Shown here piece by piece: positions 12,754 through 25,246 of a stretch of 32,485 bases of DNA. Location of the stretch: positions 1 to 32,485 of the forward strand of contig JAWAQK010000023.1 in the NCBI GenBank assembly GCA_038893995.1, given 5' to 3'. The notes under the pieces were generated by a model that made no database searches, had not been told where the DNA came from, and was given only the letters and a program-made list of their open reading frames with translations. The position numbers were made by a program, and so were the translations under genes. Numbering within the stretch: the first letter of the stretch is position 1; the number at the start of each line of letters is the position of its first letter. Source of the stretch: Candidatus Thorarchaeota archaeon (GTDB lineage: Archaea; Asgardarchaeota; Thorarchaeia; Thorarchaeales; Thorarchaeaceae).

Positions 12754-13770
12754 GTGACTCGTATTGAAGCAGCTCATGGTGCAGGCGGGAAGCTGATGCA
12801 GAAACTCATCGAGAGCGTCATCATTCCCTGTTTCACTCTGAGAAAGGTTGGGCAGGTGGGTCTAGACGAGATGGACGATGGAGCCACGCTCTTTCTGAGT
12901 GGAACAAATCTGATCGTCACCAGCGATGCACACACAGTCCATCCATTGGTATTCCCCGGAGGAAACATAGGAACGTTAGCAGCCTGCGGCACGATCAATG
13001 ATCTAGCAGTAATGGGTGCGCGTCCCGTAGCATTGACCAATACAGTCATCCTCGAGGAGGGGTTTGAAATAGAACTTCTCCGTGAGTTTCTTCTCTCTAT
13101 GGACAGAGTTCTCGAGCCCTTGGGTGTAGCCATGATAGCTGGTGATACAAAGGTCATGCCCAAGGGGAAAATAGATGGCATGGTCATGTCAACAACTGGG
13201 ATTGGCCTAGTGTATTCGGGGGATCCAGTCACTGATAGTGGGGCACGTAGGGGGGACAATGTCATTGTGACGGGGCCGATAGGAGACCACGGGACTGCAT
13301 TGTTGGCTCACAGGGAGGGGCTCAAGTTCGAAACGGATATCGTGAGTGATGTGGCTCCGCTCTGGGGACCAATAAGGGACTGCCTGGATGTGGGGGGAAT
13401 ACACGCCATGAAGGATCCCACGCGGGGAGGTCTTGCAGTTGCCCTGAACGAGATCTCATCAAAATCCCGAGTTGGGATCGAGGTGGAAGAAGACCTGATT
13501 CCAGTGAGAGACTCGGTACGATCACTCTGTGAGGTCCTCGGTCTCGATCCACTTCACCTGAGCTGCGAGGGAACTGCAGTCATGGCAGTCGATCCGAGTC
13601 GCACTGACAGCGTCCTTAGTGCCCTTTCACGTCATGCACATACACGTGAGTCTAGAGTCATAGGAAGGATTGTCGAAGACACCTCGGGTCGGGTTGTGAT
13701 GAGAACAAGAATAGGGGGACGTAAGATTGTGCAGGTCCCCACTGGTGAACCAATTCCCAGGGTCTGCTAA
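12754..13770 (+). CDS. hypE: Hydrogenase maturation carbamoyl dehydratase HypE
   Basis: AHGAGG, DDGA, FPGGNIG.LA.CGTINDLAVMGA, GDTKV, MKDPTRGG, C-terminal PRVC; GTG 12754 preceded by GGAGG. Confidence 0.96.
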   Translation: MTRIEAAHGAGGKLMQKLIESVIIPCFTLRKVGQVGLDEMDDGATLFLSGTNLIVTSDAHTVHPLVFPGGNIGTLAACGTINDLAVMGARPVALTNTVILEEGFEIELLREFLLSMDRVLEPLGVAMIAGDTKVMPKGKIDGMVMSTTGIGLVYSGDPVTDSGARRGDNVIVTGPIGDHGTALLAHREGLKFETDIVSDVAPLWGPIRDCLDVGGIHAMKDPTRGGLAVALNEISSKSRVGIEVEEDLIPVRDSVRSLCEVLGLDPLHLSCEGTAVMAVDPSRTDSVLSALSRHAHTRESRVIGRIVEDTSGRVVMRTRIGGRKIVQVPTGEPIPRVC

Positions 13771-14315
13771 GGGAACGAGGCGTCAGGTTCATCCTCTTTC
13801 GTTTCTTCGAGCATCTGTCTCAGCTTGTGCTTGAGCTGGGCCTTGAGTCGTATCATGTCTGGGTCAAGACCGAAGTAGTCAGCGAAGAGCTGGGTCGTAG
13901 TCAGGACCTTACTTCTCTTCTCAGGTCGACTCTCAATGAACTTCTTCTCCTCTAGTTCTCTCACGTGCTCGTAAACATGTGTTCCACGAAGATCAACCAG
14001 GTCTGATTGAAGTATTGGCTGTTTGAGAGCAATGAACACGAGCGTCTGCAGTGTTGCGTAGGACAGTAGCCCGCCAGGAATGAGCTTGCTTACCCTCGGA
14101 GTAAGCTCAGCTCTTAGTTGCATGACGAATCGGTCCCTGGGAAGTTCGACGACCTCGAGGGCGCCCCCTCTCTGTTCGTAATCAAAGCTCAGTTCTCTCA
14201 ACAGCTTTAGCGTTGTAGACTCGGCTTTGTCAATGATGGCAGCGAGCTCTTGCAGTGATAGAGGTCTGCCCGCCGCGTATAGTGCGGCCTCCAGAGTCAC
14301 TAGATCATCATTCAT
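13767..14315 (-). CDS. scpB: SMC-Scp complex subunit ScpB (kite)
   Basis: LEAALYAAGRPLS, LS...LQTL..IA.KQPI, TTQLFADYFGL; ATGA overlap with scpA. Confidence 0.95.
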   Translation of the reverse strand: MNDDLVTLEAALYAAGRPLSLQELAAIIDKAESTTLKLLRELSFDYEQRGGALEVVELPRDRFVMQLRAELTPRVSKLIPGGLLSYATLQTLVFIALKQPILQSDLVDLRGTHVYEHVRELEEKKFIESRPEKRSKVLTTTQLFADYFGLDPDMIRLKAQLKHKLRQMLEETKEDEPDASFP

Positions 14316-15034
14316 GAGGTCTGATGTCCCACCATCTGTGAGGCCATTAGGCCAGGATCCTTCTCTGGTAGACGTGGAAGCAGCTTCAACCAGATCTTCC
14401 CCTCGTCGTCGGCCCAGAAATCTATTAGCCCTCTTGCATACAGGTGCAGGAGTGCAAAGAAGACACGAACGACTTCTTTCCTGCTATTGTTCACCAGGAT
14501 GTCAACAAACAGCACATCCTTGTCGACCTCAAGTATCCTCAGTAGGTCGGAGTAGACCTCCGAGATTGTTTCTTCAACATTGGCACGTTCGGGCTCAACC
14601 TTGAACTCAATGCTCTTCACAGTTGTTACAATCTTGCGACGAGACGGTATCTCTCTGTGACGAATTCCCTTCGATAGTACTTGGTCCATTGCCGCTAGAA
14701 GTTCATCGATGGTCACTCGGCGGTTTACTAGCCTGAATGGAGGACGAATCAGGGGTCGGAGCAGTTCCTCTGTGTCGTCAACCGGAGGTTCAGGTTTTAC
14801 GATACCCAGTTCTACAAGTTCCTTTGTCTTTCTCATGAATATCACTGAGGCAGAGTAGAGTGCACTCCCGGAAACCCTGAAATCGATACTCCCAAGACGT
14901 CGCATCTCAGCCAAGAAACTGGACACCAGCTTTCCCACGTCGACCTTCCATGGTTCGACCTTCTCCAGCTGAAGAACATCAGTGAGGAGAGTGTAGGGAG
15001 GATTGATCCAAAATGGATGACCCTCTGTGATCAT
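14312..15034 (-). CDS. scpA: Kleisin ScpA (segregation and condensation protein A)
   Basis: EPWKVDV, DFRVSG.AL..AS, RRVTIDELL, C-terminal winged helix VRVFFALLHL; ATGA overlap with smc. Confidence 0.92.
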   Translation of the reverse strand: MITEGHPFWINPPYTLLTDVLQLEKVEPWKVDVGKLVSSFLAEMRRLGSIDFRVSGSALYSASVIFMRKTKELVELGIVKPEPPVDDTEELLRPLIRPPFRLVNRRVTIDELLAAMDQVLSKGIRHREIPSRRKIVTTVKSIEFKVEPERANVEETISEVYSDLLRILEVDKDVLFVDILVNNSRKEVVRVFFALLHLYARGLIDFWADDEGKIWLKLLPRLPEKDPGLMASQMVGHQTS

Positions 15035-18000
15035 GTGGTGCCTGCCACCTCCTCAAGGTCGACAGGAACTATTCTTGAGATCCCGTCTTGATTTGAAACA
15101 CCCACCAAGAGGTCAGCCTTCCTTGCGGTGACGTCTCTCAGAGAGATGACTATGAACTGGGAGGACTTTGACATCTCGGATATCAGTTGTGCGACGTTGT
15201 GCGCATTGACATCATCCAGTGCGGCATCGATCTCATCAAAGACGTAGAAACTTGCAGGGCTATACATCTGGATCGCGAAGATCAGGGCGAGCCCGAGGAG
15301 TGCCTTTTCGCCCCCGCTCATTGACTCTAGCGTCACAAGTTCCTTGCCTCGTGGCTTCGAGTGGACAGTCACACCTCCCATGAGTGGGTGCTCAGGATTC
15401 TCGAGCATGAGCGTTGCTTCTCCACCGGGAGATAGCTTTGCAAAGACCTTCTTGAAGTTATCAGCGATCTCATTGTACACTTCCAAGAACTTGCGGGTCT
15501 TTTCACGCTCCAATTCGTCCATGAATGAGAGAATCTCTTTGCGCTCCTCCTCCAATTTCGCCTTCTTATCAACCAGCTCATCATACAGATTCCTCTCGGC
15601 ATCATAGTCTGTCAGTGCCTTCAGATTGACCGCGCCCATCGCGTCAAGTTCTCTCTCGAGCTCCTTGATCTTTGCCTCGAGGGTTTCTAGGTCCTTGTAG
15701 CTGGGCTCTTCCGCAGACCTACGTTGTGCTATTTCGGCTGCAGCATCCGACAGTGATGCGAGCTCAGCATTCCAACCAACAATATCTGACTCAAGCCGGG
15801 CTCGCTCAGTCTGGAGCCTGTAGACTGACCGCTCATTTCCCGTCTGAGCTTCTCGAAGTTCCTCATGATCAAATCGCAATGACTTCAAGGTTTCACGAAG
15901 CTGCATCTGTTTCAGGCGTCTGTCCTTGATTATCTCCTCGACCCGCTCTTTCTCCGCACGTAGACCTTCGAGTATTGATGATCTTTCATCCAGCTTTGCC
16001 TTCAGGACCTTGAGATCGTTCTCAAGACTGGCCAGGACTGTATCTGACGATTCTATCCTGAGCTTCAACTCGTTGGCCCTTGGTCCAATGCGTTCTTGAA
16101 GAGACGCTCTTAGGGAGGTCATCGTGTTGGCAAGCTGATCTCTTCTCCGCTTCTGATGAGATGCCACCTCTCGTAGGTCTTTGAGTTCTTGGTTGATCTT
16201 GATTGCAACCGATCCTGTAAGTGCCTCGTTGACTCGATCCCGTTCCAGGCTCGTCATCTCCCGCTGTGCGACTAGTTCCTGTTCTCTGAGCAAGAGCTTT
16301 TCAATGTGTGATTCGAGAGTCTGGATCTTGGTCTTGAGTTGTTGTATCTTCTCAGAAAAACTGTCCCTGCGACCAATGCGATCCCTAAGCCGCTCCTCCT
16401 CACCCTCCAACGATAGACGCGCCTTGTAGTTCCTCTTCGAGATCTCATCAAGTTCTTGCTGGACGACGCGCATACTGTCACGAAGGGACTTCTGTTTCTC
16501 TTTCAGATCGGAGAGAATGTGCTCGAGCCCACTCAGACGTTCGATTACCTCTGGGCTCTTGTCCTCGACCTGCAACGAGAGACCTGTTTTTCCCCTGTGA
16601 TAGTGACCACCAGTTATTAGTCCGGACTTCTCAACCAGGTCGCCCTCTAGAGAGACCGCTCGCCATCCCTTCATACCAACTCGCTTAGCGGTTTCGAAGT
16701 CTTCTGTAACGAGTGTGTCTGCGAATACGAACTCAAAGGCGGGTCGCATCTTCTCATCAAAACTGACCAGGTCCAGCGCGTAGCCTATGACCCGGTCATC
16801 GTCGGGTATGTTTCCGGATATCTTGGACCGGATCCTGTTCAGAGGAATGAATGACGCGCGCCCGACGCGTTCACGCTTCAGTATCTTTATGCACTGTTCG
16901 GCAGTATCTTCGTTGTCAACAACTATGTAGCTGAGTCGAGTTCCCCCGGCTATTTCCATCGCGACGGCGTACTCAGGATCAATCGTGCCAAGTTCAGAAA
17001 CAGTTCCATAGATCCCAGGCAGCTCGCCGCCATTCCTCATCTCCAGTACTCTTGCGACTGCCTTTTCTCTTCGCAGAAACGCCTCTTCGGCCTCTCTGAG
17101 AGCATCGTTTCTTGCTTGAATCCGGATGAGTTCCTCTCTTGTGCTGTCCACGAGACGTGACGACTCGGTCACTTGCGAGTCCACAAGCTCTAGTTTCTTG
17201 ACTAGCTGTTCCAGTTCCTCACGCTTAGAGGATTCTAGCGCTTCGTCCTCAGCTAGTTGAGATCTCCTTTCCGGTAGGAGCCGCATCAGATCCTGGATCT
17301 CGGCCTCAGCAGATCGGACTACATTCTCAGCATCCTGAAGTTCCTCGGATGCATACTTGAGTTCTCTCTGCTCAGACTTGATTGTCGATCTCACGTCAGA
17401 AATGGACTCATCAAGTGAGCGTAGTTCGTTGTTCAGATCGAGCATTCTTCGTTGTAGCTCATAGTAACTGTCCTGCTCTCTTTGAAGGGCTGCTTCTAGT
17501 CGTGATATCTCGCCATCACACTTTGATATCTCAACATCCAGATTGCCAAGCTCTATCTTCTTTTGCTCAATCTCCTCTGCAGTTCTCTGAGACTCATGCT
17601 CTACAGCATGCAGCTCATCGGTCAGAGCTTTCCTCTGACCCAGGGTACTCTCATACTGAGCCTCGAGCCTCCGTTTCTCCTCATCGAGATGACGCACCTC
17701 GGCAGAAAGAAGCCCGAACTGTTCAGAAACTCGTGTCACTTCGCCCCCAGTCATTCCATCCATCTCGGCATCAATTGCCTCGATCTCACGTTCAGTTTCG
17801 GCTATCTTTCGATCCAATGCCTCGATGTCATGTACAATCCTCTCGGCTTCCTGTGACCTCTCAGAGAGAGATTCATCGATCGCGCTGAGCCTGGCTTCGC
17901 CCTTTATGATGAACCAAGATAGGATGTCGACCTTGATAGATTGTATCTGGTTCCGAGTATCCTGGTAACGTTGTGCATCAGCACGGTCATGTTCCAGCTT

Positions 18001-18621
18001 CTCGAGTATGCGTCTTCTCTCTTGAATGTGAGCATCGACCCTCGACAGGTTCGCATCGCTCTCTGATAGCTTCTTGAGGGCCCTCTCTTTCTGCTCATCA
18101 TATGCAGAGATTCCGGCGATCTCTTCTATCAGCTTCCTTCTCTCTACTGGACTCATCTTGACCATCTGGGCAGTTTCGCCCTGTAGGACCAAATTGTAGC
18201 CATTTGGATCGACACCAATGTTGCCCAGAATATCCAATACCTGAATCCGGGTCACAGTTCTTCCGTTGATCCTACACACGGACTTACCCGTGTCATCCAG
18301 CTCTCTCTCGATGACTACTCGATCAGTATCGATTGGAAGCCTTCGATCGCGATTATCAAAGTGAATCTCGACGGTCGCAGACTTGGCCTTGGGGGGCATA
18401 TTTGGTTTGGGGGGAGAGTACAGCAGGTCAGAGAAGACATTTGCACGCAGGGTCTTTGCACTGAGTTGTCCAAGCACAAATAGTATCGCATCTACGACAT
18501 TTGATTTTCCTGAGCCATTTGGCCCAACTATGCATGTGAAACCGGGTTTCAGTCTGATGGTCACAGGATCGCGGCCGAACGACTTGAATCCCCTGCAGAC
18601 GATCTTCTCAATGTAGACCAA
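15031..18621 (-). CDS. smc: Chromosome segregation protein SMC
   Basis: GFKSF, Walker A GPNGSGKSN, Q-loop LQG, coiled coils, hinge (GIYGTVSEL, GRASFIPL, G...SG.ITGG), signature MSGGEK, Walker B VFDEIDAALD. Start taken at TTG 18621. Confidence 0.97.
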   Translation of the reverse strand: MVYIEKIVCRGFKSFGRDPVTIRLKPGFTCIVGPNGSGKSNVVDAILFVLGQLSAKTLRANVFSDLLYSPPKPNMPPKAKSATVEIHFDNRDRRLPIDTDRVVIERELDDTGKSVCRINGRTVTRIQVLDILGNIGVDPNGYNLVLQGETAQMVKMSPVERRKLIEEIAGISAYDEQKERALKKLSESDANLSRVDAHIQERRRILEKLEHDRADAQRYQDTRNQIQSIKVDILSWFIIKGEARLSAIDESLSERSQEAERIVHDIEALDRKIAETEREIEAIDAEMDGMTGGEVTRVSEQFGLLSAEVRHLDEEKRRLEAQYESTLGQRKALTDELHAVEHESQRTAEEIEQKKIELGNLDVEISKCDGEISRLEAALQREQDSYYELQRRMLDLNNELRSLDESISDVRSTIKSEQRELKYASEELQDAENVVRSAEAEIQDLMRLLPERRSQLAEDEALESSKREELEQLVKKLELVDSQVTESSRLVDSTREELIRIQARNDALREAEEAFLRREKAVARVLEMRNGGELPGIYGTVSELGTIDPEYAVAMEIAGGTRLSYIVVDNEDTAEQCIKILKRERVGRASFIPLNRIRSKISGNIPDDDRVIGYALDLVSFDEKMRPAFEFVFADTLVTEDFETAKRVGMKGWRAVSLEGDLVEKSGLITGGHYHRGKTGLSLQVEDKSPEVIERLSGLEHILSDLKEKQKSLRDSMRVVQQELDEISKRNYKARLSLEGEEERLRDRIGRRDSFSEKIQQLKTKIQTLESHIEKLLLREQELVAQREMTSLERDRVNEALTGSVAIKINQELKDLREVASHQKRRRDQLANTMTSLRASLQERIGPRANELKLRIESSDTVLASLENDLKVLKAKLDERSSILEGLRAEKERVEEIIKDRRLKQMQLRETLKSLRFDHEELREAQTGNERSVYRLQTERARLESDIVGWNAELASLSDAAAEIAQRRSAEEPSYKDLETLEAKIKELERELDAMGAVNLKALTDYDAERNLYDELVDKKAKLEEERKEILSFMDELEREKTRKFLEVYNEIADNFKKVFAKLSPGGEATLMLENPEHPLMGGVTVHSKPRGKELVTLESMSGGEKALLGLALIFAIQMYSPASFYVFDEIDAALDDVNAHNVAQLISEMSKSSQFIVISLRDVTARKADLLVGVSNQDGISRIVPVDLEEVAGTT

Positions 18622-18825
18622 TTTACTCTTCCATCCGATTGGGTCCTTCTGTGACCATTTGGCGTGTCTGAGCTGTGTGATGCAACATGGATACCTAATA
18701 CTGTTGGTAATACGCCAAGAGTCGGGCGGACCAACATCAGCGACTAGCGTGCTGTATCGGTGTGCGCTTCGGGCAATCACAGAAAAACTTACTGCAGGAC
18801 GCCTATCTGTAACAGTTCGGTCATG

Positions 18826-19194
18826 TTACTGCGAAACCATACTCACGAGCGCCCTCTTGAGAGCAATTCTCAGCAGTCCCAATGATTCTCGGGCGGTCTC
18901 ACCGGCGATCGCAATCAGAATAATATTGACATCGCCCAGTATGATCACGAGCCCCTTGTCAGCTGCTATGCTTATCTCTTTCAGTCCTCCCTTGTCAACT
19001 CCTGCTACAAGCTGTGCGGCCGATGTTGAGATCTTCACAGCATTCTCAGCCACGCTAGTATGTTTGATGTCAGCGGTTATTGTGTGTCCGAATATGACAC
19101 GACCATTACTATCACATGCTATGATTCCCTGAATGTCGGTGTTCGCGGCCATCGTATCTGCAATGATCCTCTCAATCTTAGACTTGTCCACCAT
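18826..19194 (-). CDS. Roadblock/LC7 domain protein
   Basis: 122 aa; helix-IQGIIACDSNG-helix-KGGLKEISI...LGLLRIALKR pattern; SD GGAGG at 19206-19210. Confidence 0.75.
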   Translation of the reverse strand: MVDKSKIERIIADTMAANTDIQGIIACDSNGRVIFGHTITADIKHTSVAENAVKISTSAAQLVAGVDKGGLKEISIAADKGLVIILGDVNIILIAIAGETARESLGLLRIALKRALVSMVSQ

Positions 19195-19377
19195 TCAGTA
19201 GCCAACCTCCGGGCTCAAGATCTTATCCACGTGGTCCGCTCTTCTGCTGTCTCTCTTTATATCTTCTCTGGCAAGTTCACTTTCGTGAGAATCGGCGTCT
19301 GTCTAACACATTTCATCCTATCATAGAATCGCTTTAATACTTCAGCAGCGTCTGGCAGTACCAGAAGTGATGACTCA

Positions 19378-20994
19378 TTGGCCATTCTGAGGACTAGTGC
19401 TGAAGCGTTTCCATCATCTCGACGCGTGACAGGTGAGATTCCGTACGTCCTGCGAGTCGAGTTCAGGGGACTGTCAGATGACACCAGCAAGATTGTCGGG
19501 AAACCAATTGCCTGTAGCAAGTGCAATGGCTTCCTGATCAGTATAGACCAGATACAAGAGGACAAGAAGATCGGAAAATACTTTGTCTGCGCGTTCTGCG
19601 GCACGCTCAATGTGATTCAGGGAGATGTCGTGGTCGCAAGCGAGGAAACCGAGTTTGTACTCGAACCCGCTCCGAAGACTATGCCTTCGGAGACCAAACC
19701 CCCAGTGGGTGCTGGCTCGATATTGGCTGTAATTGACGTGTCTGGCTCCATGAGCGGCGCCAATCTGGCTGCAGTGAAGAGGAGCCTGATGAACACACTT
19801 GACAGTCTAGCGGCCAATGCACCAGATACCGTCTTCGGAATGGTAGAGTTTGAGAGCACTGTTGTGATAAGGGACCTGAGTACCGGAAATGGAATCGAGA
19901 TTCCACGTGAGTCCTTTGCCAGTTACGATGCAATCGTCAAATGCACGCAATCTGCTCTCGACAGAGTGAAGATGGTAAGAGTAGGCAGTAACATCAGTGC
20001 GATAAAGCAGCATGTGAAGGCGCTGACAGACAAAGGTGGTACTGCACTGGGTCCAGCAATGGTCACTGCTCTCACACTGGCAAAGCACAGAAACATCAAC
20101 CGGGTGATTCTCCTGACTGACGGCCTTGCCAACGAGGGTATCGGTGCCCTAGAGGGATATCAGGTCGTTCCACCGGGCGAGTTCTATCTCGACATCGGGA
20201 AGAAGTTCCTCGAGGCGGGAGCTATCGTCGACGTGGTCGGGATTGCATCTGGAGCAGGAATGGAACTCAAGACACTTGGCCAAATGCCTGAAACGACCGG
20301 GGGACAGATGTACTACGTGACACCCAATGAGTTAGACAGGAGTATATCTGAGTTGGCAGGAGCCACGTTACTTGGAAGAAATGTCGAGGTGCGACTAGTA
20401 GTTCCTAAGGGAGTCAAGATCAAGGACGCATCGGGTGTATCGCAGCTGGCTGTACAGCAGCTAGTTGCAGAAGCAGCCGGAAACATCGGTGCAGTTGGTG
20501 ACAATCACGAACTCTACATCGAGGTTGAACCTGAAAGAGAGATCCAGCAGGAGGAAGTCCCAATTCAAGTGCAGATCGCCTATACAGACGAGGATGGCTC
20601 CCGAAGAGTCAGAGCTGTGACCAGAAAGTTGCGGGTTGCAAGGACCGAGAAAGAGCTCATTGAAACGCTCGACCCGACAATTGGCGCCACTTTTGTCACT
20701 CAGAAGGCGGGGGAAGTCGCATTTCGTGGAGACATCAAGGGAGGACGTAGTAGGATAGCAGAGTTCAGAGCTGCCATGAGTAGCAAGGTTCGCAGTGCTC
20801 CCAGCAAATTGCAGAGCCAGATCGCAGAAGTAGACAGGGTCCTCGCCTCAGAGGAGAAAAAGATGGAAAATCGTGAGCAGATGATAGCAGCGGCTCCAAA
20901 GGCCGCCTCTGTGGCAGCAGACCAGGTGTCCACCGAGAACATCAGACAGGCAAGAAAGAGCTCAAAGGAACTGTTCGAGAACGAACAGGTCTAA
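19378..20994 (+). CDS. Sec23/Sec24-like protein: Zn finger + vWA (trunk) + beta-sandwich + helical tail
   Basis: CSKC...CAFCGTLN zinc finger, VIDVSGSM MIDAS, TALGPA, LLTDGLAN, ETTGG, QVQIAYTDEDGSRRVRAVT. Start uncertain (GTG 19426 possible). Confidence 0.82.
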   Translation: MAILRTSAEAFPSSRRVTGEIPYVLRVEFRGLSDDTSKIVGKPIACSKCNGFLISIDQIQEDKKIGKYFVCAFCGTLNVIQGDVVVASEETEFVLEPAPKTMPSETKPPVGAGSILAVIDVSGSMSGANLAAVKRSLMNTLDSLAANAPDTVFGMVEFESTVVIRDLSTGNGIEIPRESFASYDAIVKCTQSALDRVKMVRVGSNISAIKQHVKALTDKGGTALGPAMVTALTLAKHRNINRVILLTDGLANEGIGALEGYQVVPPGEFYLDIGKKFLEAGAIVDVVGIASGAGMELKTLGQMPETTGGQMYYVTPNELDRSISELAGATLLGRNVEVRLVVPKGVKIKDASGVSQLAVQQLVAEAAGNIGAVGDNHELYIEVEPEREIQQEEVPIQVQIAYTDEDGSRRVRAVTRKLRVARTEKELIETLDPTIGATFVTQKAGEVAFRGDIKGGRSRIAEFRAAMSSKVRSAPSKLQSQIAEVDRVLASEEKKMENREQMIAAAPKAASVAADQVSTENIRQARKSSKELFENEQV

Positions 20995-21145
20995 ACATGA
21001 TACCGGACACACGTCTGGGTAATAGGGCCAATTGTAATGCGCAAATCAACACAGAAATTCGGGTTACGTTGGCGTAAGTCTAAAATACCCCAGAGGTGTG
21101 TTACGCAGTAGCAAGGCAGGACCAAGAACAGCAGGGATATGGCGG

Positions 21146-21439
21146 TTGATCAGTCAAGAGAAGCTGGAGGCATTGCTATCCGAACTGAGGTCGCAGAGAG
21201 GTGTCCGCGGCGTTGTCGTGACCAATATGGAGGGATTTCCCCTCTACAGCGATCTTGACTCTGAGAAAACCGAGATCGTTGCTGCGATCATAACCTCCCT
21301 GGTTGGAAAGGCACTGGATGCCGTTCGCGAGCTGAGGGAGGGCAACCTGTCCTTTCTGACCCTTGATACAACCAAGGGTCAGATCAACATCGCACCTGAT
21401 GTGAAGGAGGGCCTGATCCTTGTGGTCCTCAAGGAATGA
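21146..21439 (+). CDS. Roadblock/LC7 domain protein (short)
   Basis: GVRGVVVTNMEGFPLYS...AAIITSL...ELREGNL; lacks the final helix. Start taken at TTG 21146. Confidence 0.85.
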   Translation: MISQEKLEALLSELRSQRGVRGVVVTNMEGFPLYSDLDSEKTEIVAAIITSLVGKALDAVRELREGNLSFLTLDTTKGQINIAPDVKEGLILVVLKE

Positions 21440-21455
21440 ATGAGAGGGAATAGCC

Positions 21456-21923
21456 ATGAGCGATCCAAAGGCATTTGACAGGATACTCACAGATGTCATC
21501 AGACAGGACAAGGGAATTCGCAGGGTCATACTGGTAGACAAGACGGGCCTGACAATAGCAAATGTATCCAAGCTGTCATACTATCCAGTTGATACCGACA
21601 GCATCGGTGCGATAGCCAGTGCTGTTTTCTGTGCCAGTGAGGAACAGGGCAAGAACTTGCAGATTGGTGAACTCGAGATAGTCACGTCTGAGTTCTCAGG
21701 CGGAAAGATATTTGCATCAGCCTGTGGCAAGGGCGTACTCTGTGTAATATCTGACTCCGAGGTCAATATTGGTCTTATCAGACTCGTCATGAAGAAGCAG
21801 GGAGTGCAGCTTGCTGAGGAACTTGATAAGTTCTTGGCAGTCGAGCCAATGAGACCCGGCAAGGACCGTGAGATGGACGAGGAAGAACTCAAGTCCGCAC
21901 TGGCAGAGTTGGAGCGGGTGTAA
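21456..21923 (+). CDS. Roadblock/LC7 (MglB-like) protein with C-terminal acidic helix
   Basis: VILVDKTGLTIA, IGAIASAVF, IGEL, VNIGLIRLVMKK, tail EMDEEELKSALAELERV. Confidence 0.88.
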   Translation: MSDPKAFDRILTDVIRQDKGIRRVILVDKTGLTIANVSKLSYYPVDTDSIGAIASAVFCASEEQGKNLQIGELEIVTSEFSGGKIFASACGKGVLCVISDSEVNIGLIRLVMKKQGVQLAEELDKFLAVEPMRPGKDREMDEEELKSALAELERV

Positions 21924-22068
21924 TAACACCAACTCGCGACTCAGAGAGAACAATTCAGATTCAGTGGGAATGGCACATGGAATACCAGCAATCCAGACCT
22001 TCGATCGACATCGATACACTGGCCCGAGAACGATCTCGTGACTGGCCCGTGGTATGGGCCAGAAGCGC

Positions 22069-22075
22069 TTATAAA
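22069..22075 (+). promoter_or_regulatory. TATA box (TTATAAA) upstream of the GTPase gene
   Basis: Canonical archaeal TATA about 50 bp before GTG 22125. Confidence 0.55.
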
Positions 22076-22124
22076 CCCAAAACAGACAAACAACATCCTG
22101 CTCTCCACACAGACCTGATGGACG

Positions 22125-22697
22125 GTGATTCAGATTAGACGAGACGACCGTGGCAGAATACATCTGAAACTGGTCTTCTACGGTCCAAGCCTTGGTGGAA
22201 AGACCACTGCTCTTCGATGGTTGTACGGGAAAGTCGAGGGGCTTCAGAAAGGAGAGTTCACGGCTATAGAGGACGAAACAAACCGTACGCTGTTCTTCGA
22301 CTACGTTCCTATGAGTGCAGGGGGACGGGTACTGTTCGATGTCTTCACCGTAGCAGGCCAGAAGCGTCACCGGCACCAGAGGAGGGTAGTTCTACAGGGA
22401 ACGGACGGCATACTCTTCGTTGCAGATTCTTCTCCCGACCAGAGGGACGAGAATGTTGAGAGCTTTGAGGAGCTCAAGATGTTTCTAGGCGATGCACTAG
22501 GAAGAGAGATACCAATAGTAGTGATGCTCAACAAGCGTGATCTCCCGAACAGGATGTCACGCGATGAGATGCTTGATCTTCTGGGTCTTGGCAGCAATAT
22601 TCCTATATACGAAACAATCGCCGTACAAGGGGTCGGTGTTAAGAGGGCATTCCAGGCCATAGCTAGAGAAGTAATCCTCAAAAGGATGTACAAGTAG
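22125..22697 (+). CDS. MglA-family small GTPase
   Basis: KLVFYGPSLGGKTT (G1), RTLFFD (G2 with intrinsic Arg), TVAGQ (G3), NKRD (G4); MglA signatures. Confidence 0.92.
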   Translation: MIQIRRDDRGRIHLKLVFYGPSLGGKTTALRWLYGKVEGLQKGEFTAIEDETNRTLFFDYVPMSAGGRVLFDVFTVAGQKRHRHQRRVVLQGTDGILFVADSSPDQRDENVESFEELKMFLGDALGREIPIVVMLNKRDLPNRMSRDEMLDLLGLGSNIPIYETIAVQGVGVKRAFQAIAREVILKRMYK

Positions 22698-22713
22698 GAC
22701 TAGGTGATTACAA

Positions 22714-23085
22714 ATGAGCGAGTCCCGTGAAGGAACCCTTGAAAGCGTGTTGAGCGAGCTACAAGGTAGCATACCAGAAATTGAGGCCTGTGCGATTGTC
22801 AGTGTAGAGGGGCTCCCAATAGTATCATCCCTGCCTGCGGAAGTCGACGAGGCAAAACTCGCAGCCATCACTGCAGCCATGTTGACGCTGGGCGAAAAAG
22901 CAGCAGCGGAGCTTGGCAAGGGGAGCCTAGAACAGGTGAACGTCAAGGGGCAGGACGGATGGATCCTCGTCGTTCAAGCAGGGTTGAACGCCTGTCTGAC
23001 TGTTTCGACTACAAGCAACGCGAAACTGGGCTTGGTCTTCCTAGATATGAAGAGGGCAGCTGAAAAGGTTGCAAAGATGATATAG
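22714..23085 (+). CDS. Roadblock/LC7 (MglB-like) protein
   Basis: IEACAIVSVEGLPIVS.LP, LAAITAAMLTLGE, LGKGSLEQV.VKG, AKLGLVFLDMKRAA. Confidence 0.93.
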   Translation: MSESREGTLESVLSELQGSIPEIEACAIVSVEGLPIVSSLPAEVDEAKLAAITAAMLTLGEKAAAELGKGSLEQVNVKGQDGWILVVQAGLNACLTVSTTSNAKLGLVFLDMKRAAEKVAKMI

Positions 23086-23149: not shown

Positions 23150-23917
23150 TTGAATCTCAGTGGTCCGGTGTATCGGCTGTATGAGTTCTGGCTCCACAGA
23201 CAGTTGCGCAACGATAGGGCACCCCTTCACGTCGGAATAATACTTGATGGCAACAGACGATATGCACGTGAACATGGACTCGATGTCCCTTGGATGGGGC
23301 ATCACAAGGGAGCCCACAAGGTAATGGAGGTACTCAAGATATTATGGGAGGCCGGAGTGAAGGTATGTACCTTGTACGCATTCTCAGTAGAGAACTTCAA
23401 GCGTGACCCCAGAGAAGTTGAAGCGATCATGAAGCTTGCTCGAGAAAAGTTCTCAGAAGTCGTCGGCAATCCTGACATTCACAAGCACAGAGTACGCATT
23501 CGAGCCATCGGACGTGTGGACCTTCTGCCTCCAGAGGTGCAAGAGGCGATTGCCGCAGCCGAGGCTGAAACACGTCAGTACTCAGATCATCTCTTGAATG
23601 TCGCAATAGGCTACTCAGGTAGGACAGAGCTAGTAGACATGGTCAGGATGATTGGGGAGAAGATAAAGTCAGGCCAGCTCGACCCGTCAGAGATTGATGA
23701 ACGGGTTGTTGAGCAACATCTCTACACTAACGGGATTCCGGATCCAGACCTCATAATCCGGACGTCAGGAGAAGAGCGACTCTCGGGCTTTCTGATATGG
23801 CAATCTGCATACTCGGAACTCTACTTTGCGCAGGTCTACTGGCCCGCAGTCCGACGAATCGACATATGGAGGGCTCTGCGGTCATACGAGCACCGTACCC
23901 GACGGTTCGGCACATAG
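23150..23917 (+). CDS. uppS: cis-prenyltransferase (polyprenyl/undecaprenyl diphosphate synthase)
   Basis: HVGIILDGNRR, TLYAFSVENF.R, PDLIIRTSGEERLSGFLIWQSAYSEL, C-terminal RRFG. Confidence 0.96.
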   Translation: MNLSGPVYRLYEFWLHRQLRNDRAPLHVGIILDGNRRYAREHGLDVPWMGHHKGAHKVMEVLKILWEAGVKVCTLYAFSVENFKRDPREVEAIMKLAREKFSEVVGNPDIHKHRVRIRAIGRVDLLPPEVQEAIAAAEAETRQYSDHLLNVAIGYSGRTELVDMVRMIGEKIKSGQLDPSEIDERVVEQHLYTNGIPDPDLIIRTSGEERLSGFLIWQSAYSELYFAQVYWPAVRRIDIWRALRSYEHRTRRFGT

Positions 23918-23986
23918 ACTCCAGATTACAGCTCTTTTTATTGAGTCTTCCTGTGAATCGTCCTGAGATTGGAGAAGTATCACCCA

Positions 23987-25246
23987 ATGGATCAACGGCT
24001 ATGCGGAGATGACTTCACGGTGGTAAGACCGCCCCTGGAAGTCTACACGGGCATTGTTGAGGTGCAGATTCCAGATGGAGTGGCAGCTAGACTCAAGAAG
24101 GCATTCGAGCGCTTCGCTGCACACAGATATGCAGAAGACCCGCTTTCTACACATCTGACCCGCTTTGTGGAAGTCATTAGTACTCTGGTTGCATATCTCG
24201 ATAACAGGAACCGTGTGAGTACATCGGATGTGTCAGAAGCGATTGATCTTCTGGACTACTTCACCTCGACCACCAAGTGGTGGACGATGACACGTAAGGA
24301 CCCCCGGTTCAATCTTCGGCCTCCATCTCAGGACCCCAGGCAGTTCATCAGGGGCCTTGCAGACCTGGTCTTGGGTAAGGAGACAATCGAACGTTCGCGG
24401 ATCGCCTCGGACAAGTTGCTAGCATTCCTCAGAGAGCAGGGCATAGGTAAACAAAGAGAGCAGACGGATCTCTGCAGTAGAATTGCGTCATGTTGGTTGC
24501 TGCTCAGCGGCATCATCTGCAGACATCAGGCTCGATCCTCTACGGAGGAGAACGATTTTGAACTGGCATACGATATCATGAGAGTATTGCTATTCTACAC
24601 CCCTCGGACGGAATACTGTGCCCTCAGGGCTCTTCGTGAGCTAGGAACCAATCCGATCCTACCAAGGATTGCTCAAGTGAATCTATCCCCAAACTTCGAG
24701 AAGAGACTCGAGTCATCACCCGCCGCTGTTCTTGACAAGTATAGATCCTTGGTTCCTGCACGCGGTGAATCAGCTCCAGCCATCTCTCATGGGACCCTGA
24801 CCAATGCTCTGCGATTCATGGTGCAGTTTCAAGCCTCGTTGGAGGGCAGGGAGCGTGTCGAGGAGGATACCTACGACCACATGATAATCAGTGCCCTGTC
24901 GATGTTACATTCAGTCGGAATTGCATCCGAGGTCTTTCGTGACGAGAATGCTGTATCCGCACTGTTTTCACGACTCCGTATCATTGGCGATACGCTCGAA
25001 CGGATTGACAACGTGATGAAACGACTGGAGCTGTTACTACTTGAAACGAGCGGCGACAGAAACTTCTTGCTCCGGTACCCACGCTTCGTCACCCGAATTA
25101 TGGCGACCATAGCACTCATCGGTGCGGGAACAGCCCCAGCGTCCAGTACTCGGATGGAGGATAGCGACCTGAAGAGAGGGATAATCCTTCTTTCTAGACT
25201 GCTTGCCAATCGTCCTAGCTGTCCGGAGGGGGCCCCTCAATTATGA
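23987..25246 (+). CDS. Hypothetical all-helical protein with four ~103-aa AAA-lid-like repeats
   Basis: Long ORF with an upstream T-rich TATA-like box (23935-23942) and GGAG; recurring R-x-x-h-x-x-x-D-h-x-x-A motif; no P-loop. Confidence 0.7.
   Translation: MDQRLCGDDFTVVRPPLEVYTGIVEVQIPDGVAARLKKAFERFAAHRYAEDPLSTHLTRFVEVISTLVAYLDNRNRVSTSDVSEAIDLLDYFTSTTKWWTMTRKDPRFNLRPPSQDPRQFIRGLADLVLGKETIERSRIASDKLLAFLREQGIGKQREQTDLCSRIASCWLLLSGIICRHQARSSTEENDFELAYDIMRVLLFYTPRTEYCALRALRELGTNPILPRIAQVNLSPNFEKRLESSPAAVLDKYRSLVPARGESAPAISHGTLTNALRFMVQFQASLEGRERVEEDTYDHMIISALSMLHSVGIASEVFRDENAVSALFSRLRIIGDTLERIDNVMKRLELLLLETSGDRNFLLRYPRFVTRIMATIALIGAGTAPASSTRMEDSDLKRGIILLSRLLANRPSCPEGAPQL

Follow-up and report, generated by a model that had tools for sequence, protein, structure and literature searches.

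Introduction

The case for a membrane-trafficking toolkit that predates eukaryotes draws on three groups of Asgard proteins: small GTPases, Roadblocks and Sec23/24-like proteins. Roadblock families and small GTPases have already been listed among the Asgard core genes, MglA/MglB-like pairs have been noted and modelled in Thorarchaeota (PMC13408092), Asgard Sec23-like proteins have been published (PMC11914678), and the GTPases of MK-D1 were reported to lie generally outside operons with Roadblock genes (Tran et al. 2024). The closest described systems are the MglA/MglB(+MglC) switch of Myxococcus xanthus and Thermus thermophilus (PDB 3t12, 6izw, 6h5b), the Ragulator-Rag system (LAMTOR1-5, RagA/C), the Sec23 and Sec24 subunits of coat protein complex II (COPII), the circularly permuted Ras (CPRas1) family described by Elias and Novotny in 2008 (PMC2430557) and the ArnA-ArnB complex of Sulfolobus (PDB 8s05; PMC12852372). 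Here we examine a locus in which genes of these kinds adjoin. It occupies positions 18826-23085 of a 32,485-nucleotide stretch of DNA (hereafter the window) carried by a Thorarchaeota genome assembly of 2.33 Mb, 91% complete, and it comprises four Roadblock genes, which we name RblA to RblD, a gene for a small GTPase of the MglA type and a gene of the Sec23/24 superfamily, referred to below as Sec23-like.

A sequence-only reading had taken the six genes for a single system, in which a heteromeric Roadblock scaffold controls a GTPase whose effector is the Sec23-like protein, the whole being a candidate proto-coat or polarity module. Our analysis points to a different reading, which we consider likely: the locus is an ancient five-gene Asgard GTPase switch in which a separate, stand-alone Sec23/24-superfamily gene has lodged.

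Results

A GTPase and four Roadblock genes form a conserved Asgard cluster

A scan of open reading frames (ORFs) and domains found six adjoining ORFs at 18826-23085, with no further credible gene in between, confirming the gene order and positions that the sequence-only reading had proposed (Table 1). The gaps between the ORFs measure, in order, 183, 103-151, 16, 201 and 16 bp. Phyletic counts were made on 251 Asgard genomes, each at least 80% complete; linkage at distant loci was read from Pfam-family and whole-genome searches, narrow family hidden Markov models having given no matches there. RblC was present in 234 of the 251 genomes, 26 of the 28 families and 88 of the 89 high-quality genomes. 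The order RblB-RblC-GTPase-RblD recurred in at least 11 families (f1, f2, f7, f8, f12, f13, f15, f16, f18, f19 and f22), which differ in having or missing an adjoining RblA, SMC-ScpAB or UppS. RblD follows the GTPase in all families with the cluster, and RblA is divergent to RblB in Thorarchaeota, f2, f12, f15, f16, f19, f21 and f3. The proposal that the GTPase and its distinct Roadblocks belong to one module is upheld by this conserved order and by the spread of RblC. Judged by gene content and order, the five-gene core (divergent RblA, RblB-RblC and GTPase-RblD) is an ancient, Asgard-wide switch module, and no description of such a cluster was found in the literature searched.

Some loci depart from this arrangement: RblB, RblC and RblD occur without a GTPase between RblC and RblD at L143 (G038, family f3, a 1.4 Mb genome) and L152 (G090, family f21). 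Further clusters of Roadblock and small-GTPase genes occur in the genome that carries the window, at 12.6-14.9 kb of contig C46, where three Roadblock matches surround one GTPase match, and at 65.8-68.6 kb of contig C1.

The Sec23-like gene adjoins the switch in a single family

Only 98 of the 251 genomes, mostly from six families, yielded a Sec23-like protein. Set against the 234 genomes that have RblC, this means that most of the Asgard genomes lacking a Sec23-like gene still possess the switch. A synteny survey located the gene between RblA and RblB in the Thorarchaeota family only, and the conserved linkage to GTPase and Roadblock genes expected by the sequence-only reading is absent outside Thorarchaeaceae. 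RblA and RblB-RblC-GTPase-RblD were found without the Sec23-like gene among them in G037 (same taxonomic order as the window's genome), G047, the Hermod-like G061 and G062, G064 (Borrarchaeum), G078 and others, and outside Thorarchaeota the clusters are often still flanked by SMC-ScpAB and UppS. On the complete G078 chromosome, the Sec23-like gene lies 860 kb from the cluster; in G037, G047, G055, G061, G062 and G064 it sits on other contigs or in other places. Indeed, it was unlinked from the core in every non-Thorarchaeota lineage checked in which both could be placed.

No conserved partner of the Sec23-like gene emerged outside Thorarchaeota, where its neighbours are housekeeping genes kept only within each lineage. 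The similar-sized genes of 360 aa just upstream of it in the Hermod and Heimdall groups proved unrelated. In the Heimdall group, a Ras-family GTPase is encoded on the opposite strand some 4 kb upstream of the Sec23-like gene; as unrelated genes separate the two, it was judged uninformative. Sec23-like genes were also seen on contigs labelled Bathyarchaeia and Undinarchaeota (L114, L121 and L126), which mis-binning or gene transfer may explain. In the tree, the Bathyarchaeia-labelled sequence groups with Heimdall-labelled ones, and the two Undinarchaeota sequences sit together on a separate long branch close to Borrarchaeum and G078, a join flagged as possibly false.

Within Thorarchaeota, the order RblA (reverse strand), Sec23-like, RblB, RblC, spacer, GTPase and RblD was found at about 50 loci. 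This adjacency argues only weakly for coupling, because the housekeeping flanks (ScpB, ScpA and SMC beyond RblA, UppS plus an orphan ORF beyond RblD) are equally collinear at these loci and because the spacer between RblC and the GTPase, which spans 0.15-3.9 kb in other Thorarchaeota genomes, hosts unrelated genes. These include a ClC channel, a TetR gene with a methyltransferase, NosD-like and arrestin-like genes and unknowns, and the cluster therefore tolerates lodgers. The absence of interlopers, a further element of the sequence-only reading, thus holds for the window and fails in many Thorarchaeota relatives. One of these lodgers, in a single Thorarchaeota genome, is an arrestin/Vps26-like gene (Arrestin_N, 2.5e-20; L089:10826-11872, reverse strand).

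The Sec23-like gene has also left this position within the family. In G004, the cluster is intact, with 267 bp between RblA and RblB, and the Sec23-like copy sits on another contig; since this unlinked copy nests in the Thorarchaeota clade of a quick tree, whose long branches (the second copy of G028, and G209) are unsure, it represents a relocation. G028 itself carries an extra, divergent copy. In G003, all that was found of a Sec23-like gene is a stretch coding for its last 29 aa, located between RblA and RblB, and comparison with the congener G018 (96-98% nucleotide identity) revealed a clean deletion of about 1.6 kb that removed the gene and left the Roadblock and GTPase genes intact. In a further Thorarchaeota genome, G012 (98% complete, locus L137), the cluster stops at RblB, and the following 8 kb contain neither RblA nor SMC nor a Sec23-like gene; the genome as a whole yielded no Sec23-like gene either, and the arrangement may reflect a rearrangement or an assembly join.

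The GTPase resembles MglA and the four Roadblocks diverged long ago

A PDB search returned Myxococcus and Thermus MglA as the best solved relatives of the GTPase (3e-38, 134 bits), as against 1.4e-12 for the best Arf, and Pfam gave weak Arf and Ras matches. The P-loop GPSLGGKTT and the G4 motif NKRDLPN align with M. xanthus MglA. In G3, FTVAGQ lines up with the MglA motif YTVPGQ, both having Thr where Asp is usual and, after it, the catalytic Gln, and the switch-I Arg is present, ETNRTLFFDY aligning with ETDRTLFFDF (MglA Arg53). The roles of the G3 and catalytic Gln residues are established from MglA structures. The protein consists of a G domain without a C-terminal Roadblock domain, has no N-terminal amphipathic helix of the Arf/Sar1 type, and is 91-96% identical across the Thorarchaeota family. 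It shows every MglA sequence hallmark tested and, on these motifs, is of the MglA type, in agreement with the sequence-only reading.

All four Roadblock assignments were borne out as well. RblB, RblC and RblD exceed the Pfam cut-off, and RblA was recognised through its orthologues. In this genome, RblA matches Robl_LC7 weakly and under the cut-off (E 0.027, 14.6 bits); its orthologues clear it (48.8 bits), and a profile of ten of them matches the solved Roadblock/LC7 chain 9jq8_A at 1.9e-23. PDB entries 9jq8 and 9jue, the latter titled Roadblock3 of MK-D1, match other paralogues in addition to RblA, and no paper on either entry was found in the literature searched. RblB matches Robl_LC7 (1.4e-17) and, in the PDB, 7f8f (Odin RBLC7, 3.7e-23) and dynein light chain roadblock (1e-13); alignments of its orthologues start at residues 11-17. 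RblB also passes the Pfam cut-off for LAMTOR5 (28.7 bits) and RblC that for LAMTOR3 (MAPKK1_Int), both matches being weaker than the generic Robl_LC7 ones and falling in the same clan. RblC was further matched by Robl_LC7 (4.5e-11), NCBIfam MglB (9.5e-6) and PDB MglB (5e-6), and RblD by Robl_LC7 (3e-16) and 7f8m (4.6e-23), a Thorarchaeota Roadblock that is a paralogue.

Across 17 RblC sequences from at least 15 Asgard families, 47 columns are invariant and the acidic C-terminal helix motif is conserved. The AlphaFold2 (AF2) model of RblC, with a predicted local distance difference test (pLDDT) score of 76, displays a Roadblock core, a disordered low-confidence linker and a helix at residues 142-152, and its best structural matches are MglB, LAMTOR2 and MK-D1 'Roadblock3'. 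RblC alone of the four has an MglB-type C-terminal helix after the Roadblock core. Pairwise, the four proteins are 19-32% identical or not alignable, and each has a separate orthologue set; by this divergence, they are old paralogues.

The Sec23-like protein is closest to CPRas1-type proteins by profile score

In the Sec23-like protein, Pfam detected Sec23_trunk (34.4 bits, cut-off 27) and VWA, with Sec23_BS at 30.6 bits against a cut-off of 33.5 that a Heimdall-group orthologue exceeds. The four zinc-finger Cys residues (C46, C49, C71 and C74) and the full MIDAS (metal-ion-dependent adhesion site) set (D120-x-S122-G-S124, T222 and D248) are invariant in 37 Asgard sequences. The AF2 model (pLDDT 87; predicted template-modelling score, pTM, 0.88) shows N-terminal strands, zinc finger, VWA trunk, beta-sandwich and a helical C-terminus. 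Neither this model nor Foldseek gave a gelsolin domain, the chain stopping at residue 538 with helices only, and all Asgard Sec23-like proteins are reported to lack one (PMC11914678). The top PDB folds in Foldseek were Sec23/Sec24 (E 3e-30, template-modelling score by query, TMq, 0.73), and the archaeal ArnAB complex 8s05_A was also matched (E 2e-15, score by target, TMt, 0.68).

A profile of the 37 Asgard sequences scored human Sec24A at 75.7 bits (2.8e-20) and Sec23A at 28.7 bits, and matched 8s05_A at 5e-9. The same profile scored eukaryotic zinc-finger-VWA proteins at 207-252 bits among its best 150 matches. Within these 150, 29 of the 101 proteins longer than 580 aa have at their N-terminus a Ras domain whose match is split in two, and none of the 49 of up to 580 aa has a GTPase domain. 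The Ras-bearing matches are named 'circularly permutated Ras protein 1-like' by their sources, CPRas1 being the family introduced above. An Entamoeba protein of 547 aa without Ras can be aligned collinearly with the window protein along almost the full length (27% identity, 2e-47), a sea-urchin CPRas1-like protein is likewise collinear with it (24% identity, 5e-41), and the zinc finger and MIDAS are retained in CPRas1-type relatives. On these scores and alignments, the closest eukaryotic relatives of the protein are CPRas1-type zinc-finger-VWA proteins, not COPII Sec23/24; the earlier Sec23/24-like label is correct at the superfamily level. No paper linking CPRas with Asgard archaea was found in the literature searched. 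A search with the window protein alone as query found no longer (fused) forms, which is weak evidence as the database was word-indexed, and an exhaustive profile search later recovered the eukaryotic Ras fusions that the word-indexed search had missed. A probable role for the protein is that of an adaptor whose MIDAS site takes up an acidic ligand.

Promoter-like elements suggest several transcription units

The motif AATGCGCAAA, located about 35 nt upstream of the TATA-like TCTAAAATA, precedes RblB and is conserved in seven Thorarchaeota genomes. G004 and G003, which have no Sec23-like gene at the locus, retain both motifs. This element is a candidate promoter of RblB's own, in which AATGCGCAAA may be a regulator binding site. 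Two relatives that carry inserts also have TATA-like elements 5' of the GTPase; the alignment is too poor there for a conserved promoter to be called. The region between RblA and the Sec23-like gene is poorly conserved. The RblB-RblC gap and the GTPase-RblD gap have the same length, and the locus would comprise at least three transcription units: the Sec23-like gene, RblB-RblC and GTPase-RblD.

Gene layout and flanking genes

Coordinates of the six genes, the promoter-like elements and the flanking genes are collected in Table 1. The orphan ORF 3' of UppS is retained across the Thorarchaeota family at 36-42% identity.

Table 1. Features of the locus and its flanks, in window coordinates.
Feature	Position	Strand	Description
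SMC-ScpA-ScpB	13767-18780	-	adjoins RblA
RblA	18826..19194	-	Roadblock paralogue, 122 aa; divergent from the rest; 45 bp upstream of SMC, same strand as SMC
Sec23/24-superfamily gene	19378..20994	+	538 aa, TTG start; zinc finger, VWA trunk, beta-sandwich and C-terminal helices
Promoter-like element 5' of RblB	21036..21087	+	AATGCGCAAA at 21036-21045; TATA-like TCTAAAATA at 21079-21087
RblB	ORF opens 21098, likely start TTG 21146, end 21439	+	short LC7/DYNLRB-type Roadblock, ~97 aa
RblC	21456..21923	+	MglB-like Roadblock, 155 aa; linker, then a conserved acidic helix at the C-terminus; gap of 16 bp to RblB
RblC-GTPase spacer	21924..22124	+	TATA-like CTTATAAA at 22068-22075; insertion site for unrelated genes in relatives
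MglA-type small GTPase	22125..22697	+	190 aa
RblD	22714..23085	+	full-length Roadblock, 123 aa; 16 bp after GTPase
UppS (cis-prenyltransferase)	23150-23917	+	directly after RblD
Orphan ORF	23969-25246	+	425 aa; no Pfam/NCBIfam match

Discussion

In the reading that we favour, an old switch with a lodged Sec23-like gene, the MglA-type GTPase would hydrolyse GTP with its own switch-I Arg and the Gln of TVAGQ, by analogy with MglA/MglB, and a Roadblock dimer docking across the switch regions would position both residues. This dimer would most likely be a heterodimer of the short RblB and the MglB-like RblC, the acidic C-terminal helix of RblC contacting the GTPase in the manner of the MglB Ct-helix. 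RblD and RblA would make up another Roadblock platform, resembling MglC or LAMTOR, on which the switch is scaffolded or by which it is placed. We infer these dimer pairings and any GAP (GTPase-activating protein) or GEF (guanine-nucleotide exchange factor) roles among them, and our best guess for the cellular output is a positioning or polarity switch. The Sec23-like gene would have landed in the divergent RblA/RblB intergenic region in an ancestor of the Thorarchaeota family, as a transcription unit of its own. Since this insertion is limited to one archaeal family, the position of the gene does not show a primitive vesicle coat, and position alone does not tie the gene to the switch. The genome has 16 Roadblock and 28 small-GTPase matches, with which a chance adjacency in one of about nine lineage contexts is, by rough estimate, not unlikely.

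Several observations weigh against this reading. The adjacency has been kept in about 60 Thorarchaeota genomes of at least 16 genera, and has outlasted a drop of the Sec23-like protein to about 50% identity. No evident T-rich terminator was found 3' of the Sec23-like gene, so that read-through into RblB-RblC is possible. Finally, eukaryotic CPRas1 proteins join the zinc-finger-VWA module to a Ras-like domain, which makes some link to a GTPase plausible for the family. The kept adjacency favours the view that the six genes are one Thorarchaeota system: a heteromeric Roadblock scaffold would govern the MglA-type GTPase, which in its GTP-bound state would draw in the Sec23-like protein as effector, to form a proto-coat or polarity adaptor. 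The precedent of Sec23 as effector and GAP of Sar1 (PMC11914678) speaks for the same view, as do those eukaryotic kin in which this zinc-finger-VWA module carries a circularly permuted Ras domain (PMC2430557). We nevertheless regard this view as unlikely: other Asgard lineages with both genes show no linkage, most of the Asgard genomes that lack the gene have the switch, and the switch stayed intact where the gene moved (G004) or was recently deleted (G003). Moreover, the Sec23-like gene forms a separate promoter-like unit, and its product has neither a gelsolin domain nor an arginine finger. The GTPase, for its part, is MglA-type with its own Arg and without the amphipathic helix of Arf/Sar1, the GTPase fused in eukaryotes is Ras-family, not MglA, and three Asgard Sec23-like proteins assayed with Asgard Arf in yeast showed weak binding on which nucleotide state had no effect (PMC11914678). 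The effector and proto-coat claim of the sequence-only reading is therefore not supported. Improbable, too, is the more specific proposal that the Thorarchaeota protein partners the adjoining switch of MglA-type GTPase and Roadblocks in a way that depends on nucleotide state, as a prokaryotic, split version of the eukaryotic cpRAS-VWA fusion; if true, this would be the first instance outside eukaryotes of a Sec23/24-type adaptor under the direction of a small GTPase.

Two other explanations have to be weighed against a lodged gene in an old switch. The Sec23-like protein could work like Sulfolobus ArnB, as a MIDAS-VWA/beta-sandwich scaffold whose C-terminal helices are read by phosphorylation-dependent partners, with the ArnA zinc finger fused on and no tie to the GTPase. 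The Foldseek and profile matches to ArnB, its layout of VWA (MIDAS), beta-sandwich and helical domains with a zinc finger brought by ArnA (PMC12852372), and the MIDAS residues invariant in the Asgard sequences are consistent with this proposal, which we consider rather unlikely. Sequence similarity to CPRas1-type proteins and Sec24 is far above that to ArnB, and no FHA protein or Ser/Thr kinase adjoins in the window, no search having been aimed at such partners. The switch could also belong to a wider conserved block, functionally tied to SMC-ScpA-ScpB (chromosome organisation or division-site placement) or to UppS (lipid carrier or envelope). SMC-ScpA-ScpB adjoins RblA in f1, f2, f12 and f19 and is inverted yet adjacent in f3 and f21, and UppS follows RblD in f1, f2, f8, f12, f13, f15 and f21 (loci L128-L133, L140, L143, L152 and L156). 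SMC is not adjacent in f7, f8, f15, f16, f18 and f22, and such adjacency could be leftover ancestral gene order as well as a functional tie; we find this explanation very unlikely.

How, then, does the locus compare with known systems? It shares with MglA/MglB the TVAGQ, switch-I Arg and NKRD of the GTPase, the adjoining Roadblock genes, the MglB fold and C-terminal helix of RblC, and more than one Roadblock protein per GTPase. By contrast, MglB is a homodimer, and the window has four anciently diverged Roadblocks, one of them a short LC7-type protein, which makes heterodimers likely; the switch is also archaeal and nearly universal in Asgard genomes. With Ragulator-Rag, it has in common several long and short Roadblocks alongside a small GTPase (one of the four being short), the passing of the LAMTOR5 and LAMTOR3 cut-offs by RblB and RblC, and LAMTOR2 among the best folds for RblC. 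However, no LAMTOR1-like wrapping subunit was identified, and an MglA-type GTPase without a C-terminal Roadblock domain is not a Rag/Gtr. The result is a near-universal Asgard switch of one MglA-type GTPase and four dedicated Roadblocks, with a Ragulator-like composition and MglA/MglB-like chemistry.

The domains of COPII Sec23/Sec24 recur in the Sec23-like protein in the same order, from zinc finger and VWA trunk to beta-sandwich and helices. The GAP arginine of Sec23 sits in its gelsolin-like domain (PMC11914678), and the window protein, having no such domain, has no Sec23 arginine finger. The MIDAS of the window protein is intact, unlike that of the aligned human Sec24A, which has DVSHN as the first motif and QTQ at the TDG position, and the GTPase beside it is not of the Sar1/Arf type. 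It resembles the ArnA-ArnB complex in its MIDAS VWA, beta-sandwich and C-terminal helical domain and in the zinc finger, which a partner packs on in ArnA-ArnB and which lies in the same chain in the window protein; sequence similarity is weak. The CPRas1 family is closest by sequence, with 207-252 bits as against 75.7 for Sec24A and a collinear zinc finger, MIDAS-VWA and beta-sandwich, but proteins of Asgard length lack the fused Ras (0 of 49 among the best 150 matches), and the domain fused in eukaryotes is Ras-family rather than MglA-type. The apparent GTPase and coat module would thus be the product of a lineage-specific insertion, which warns against a proto-COPII reading, and the CPRas1 kinship changes which eukaryotic proteins the Asgard 'Sec23/24-like' proteins should be compared with.

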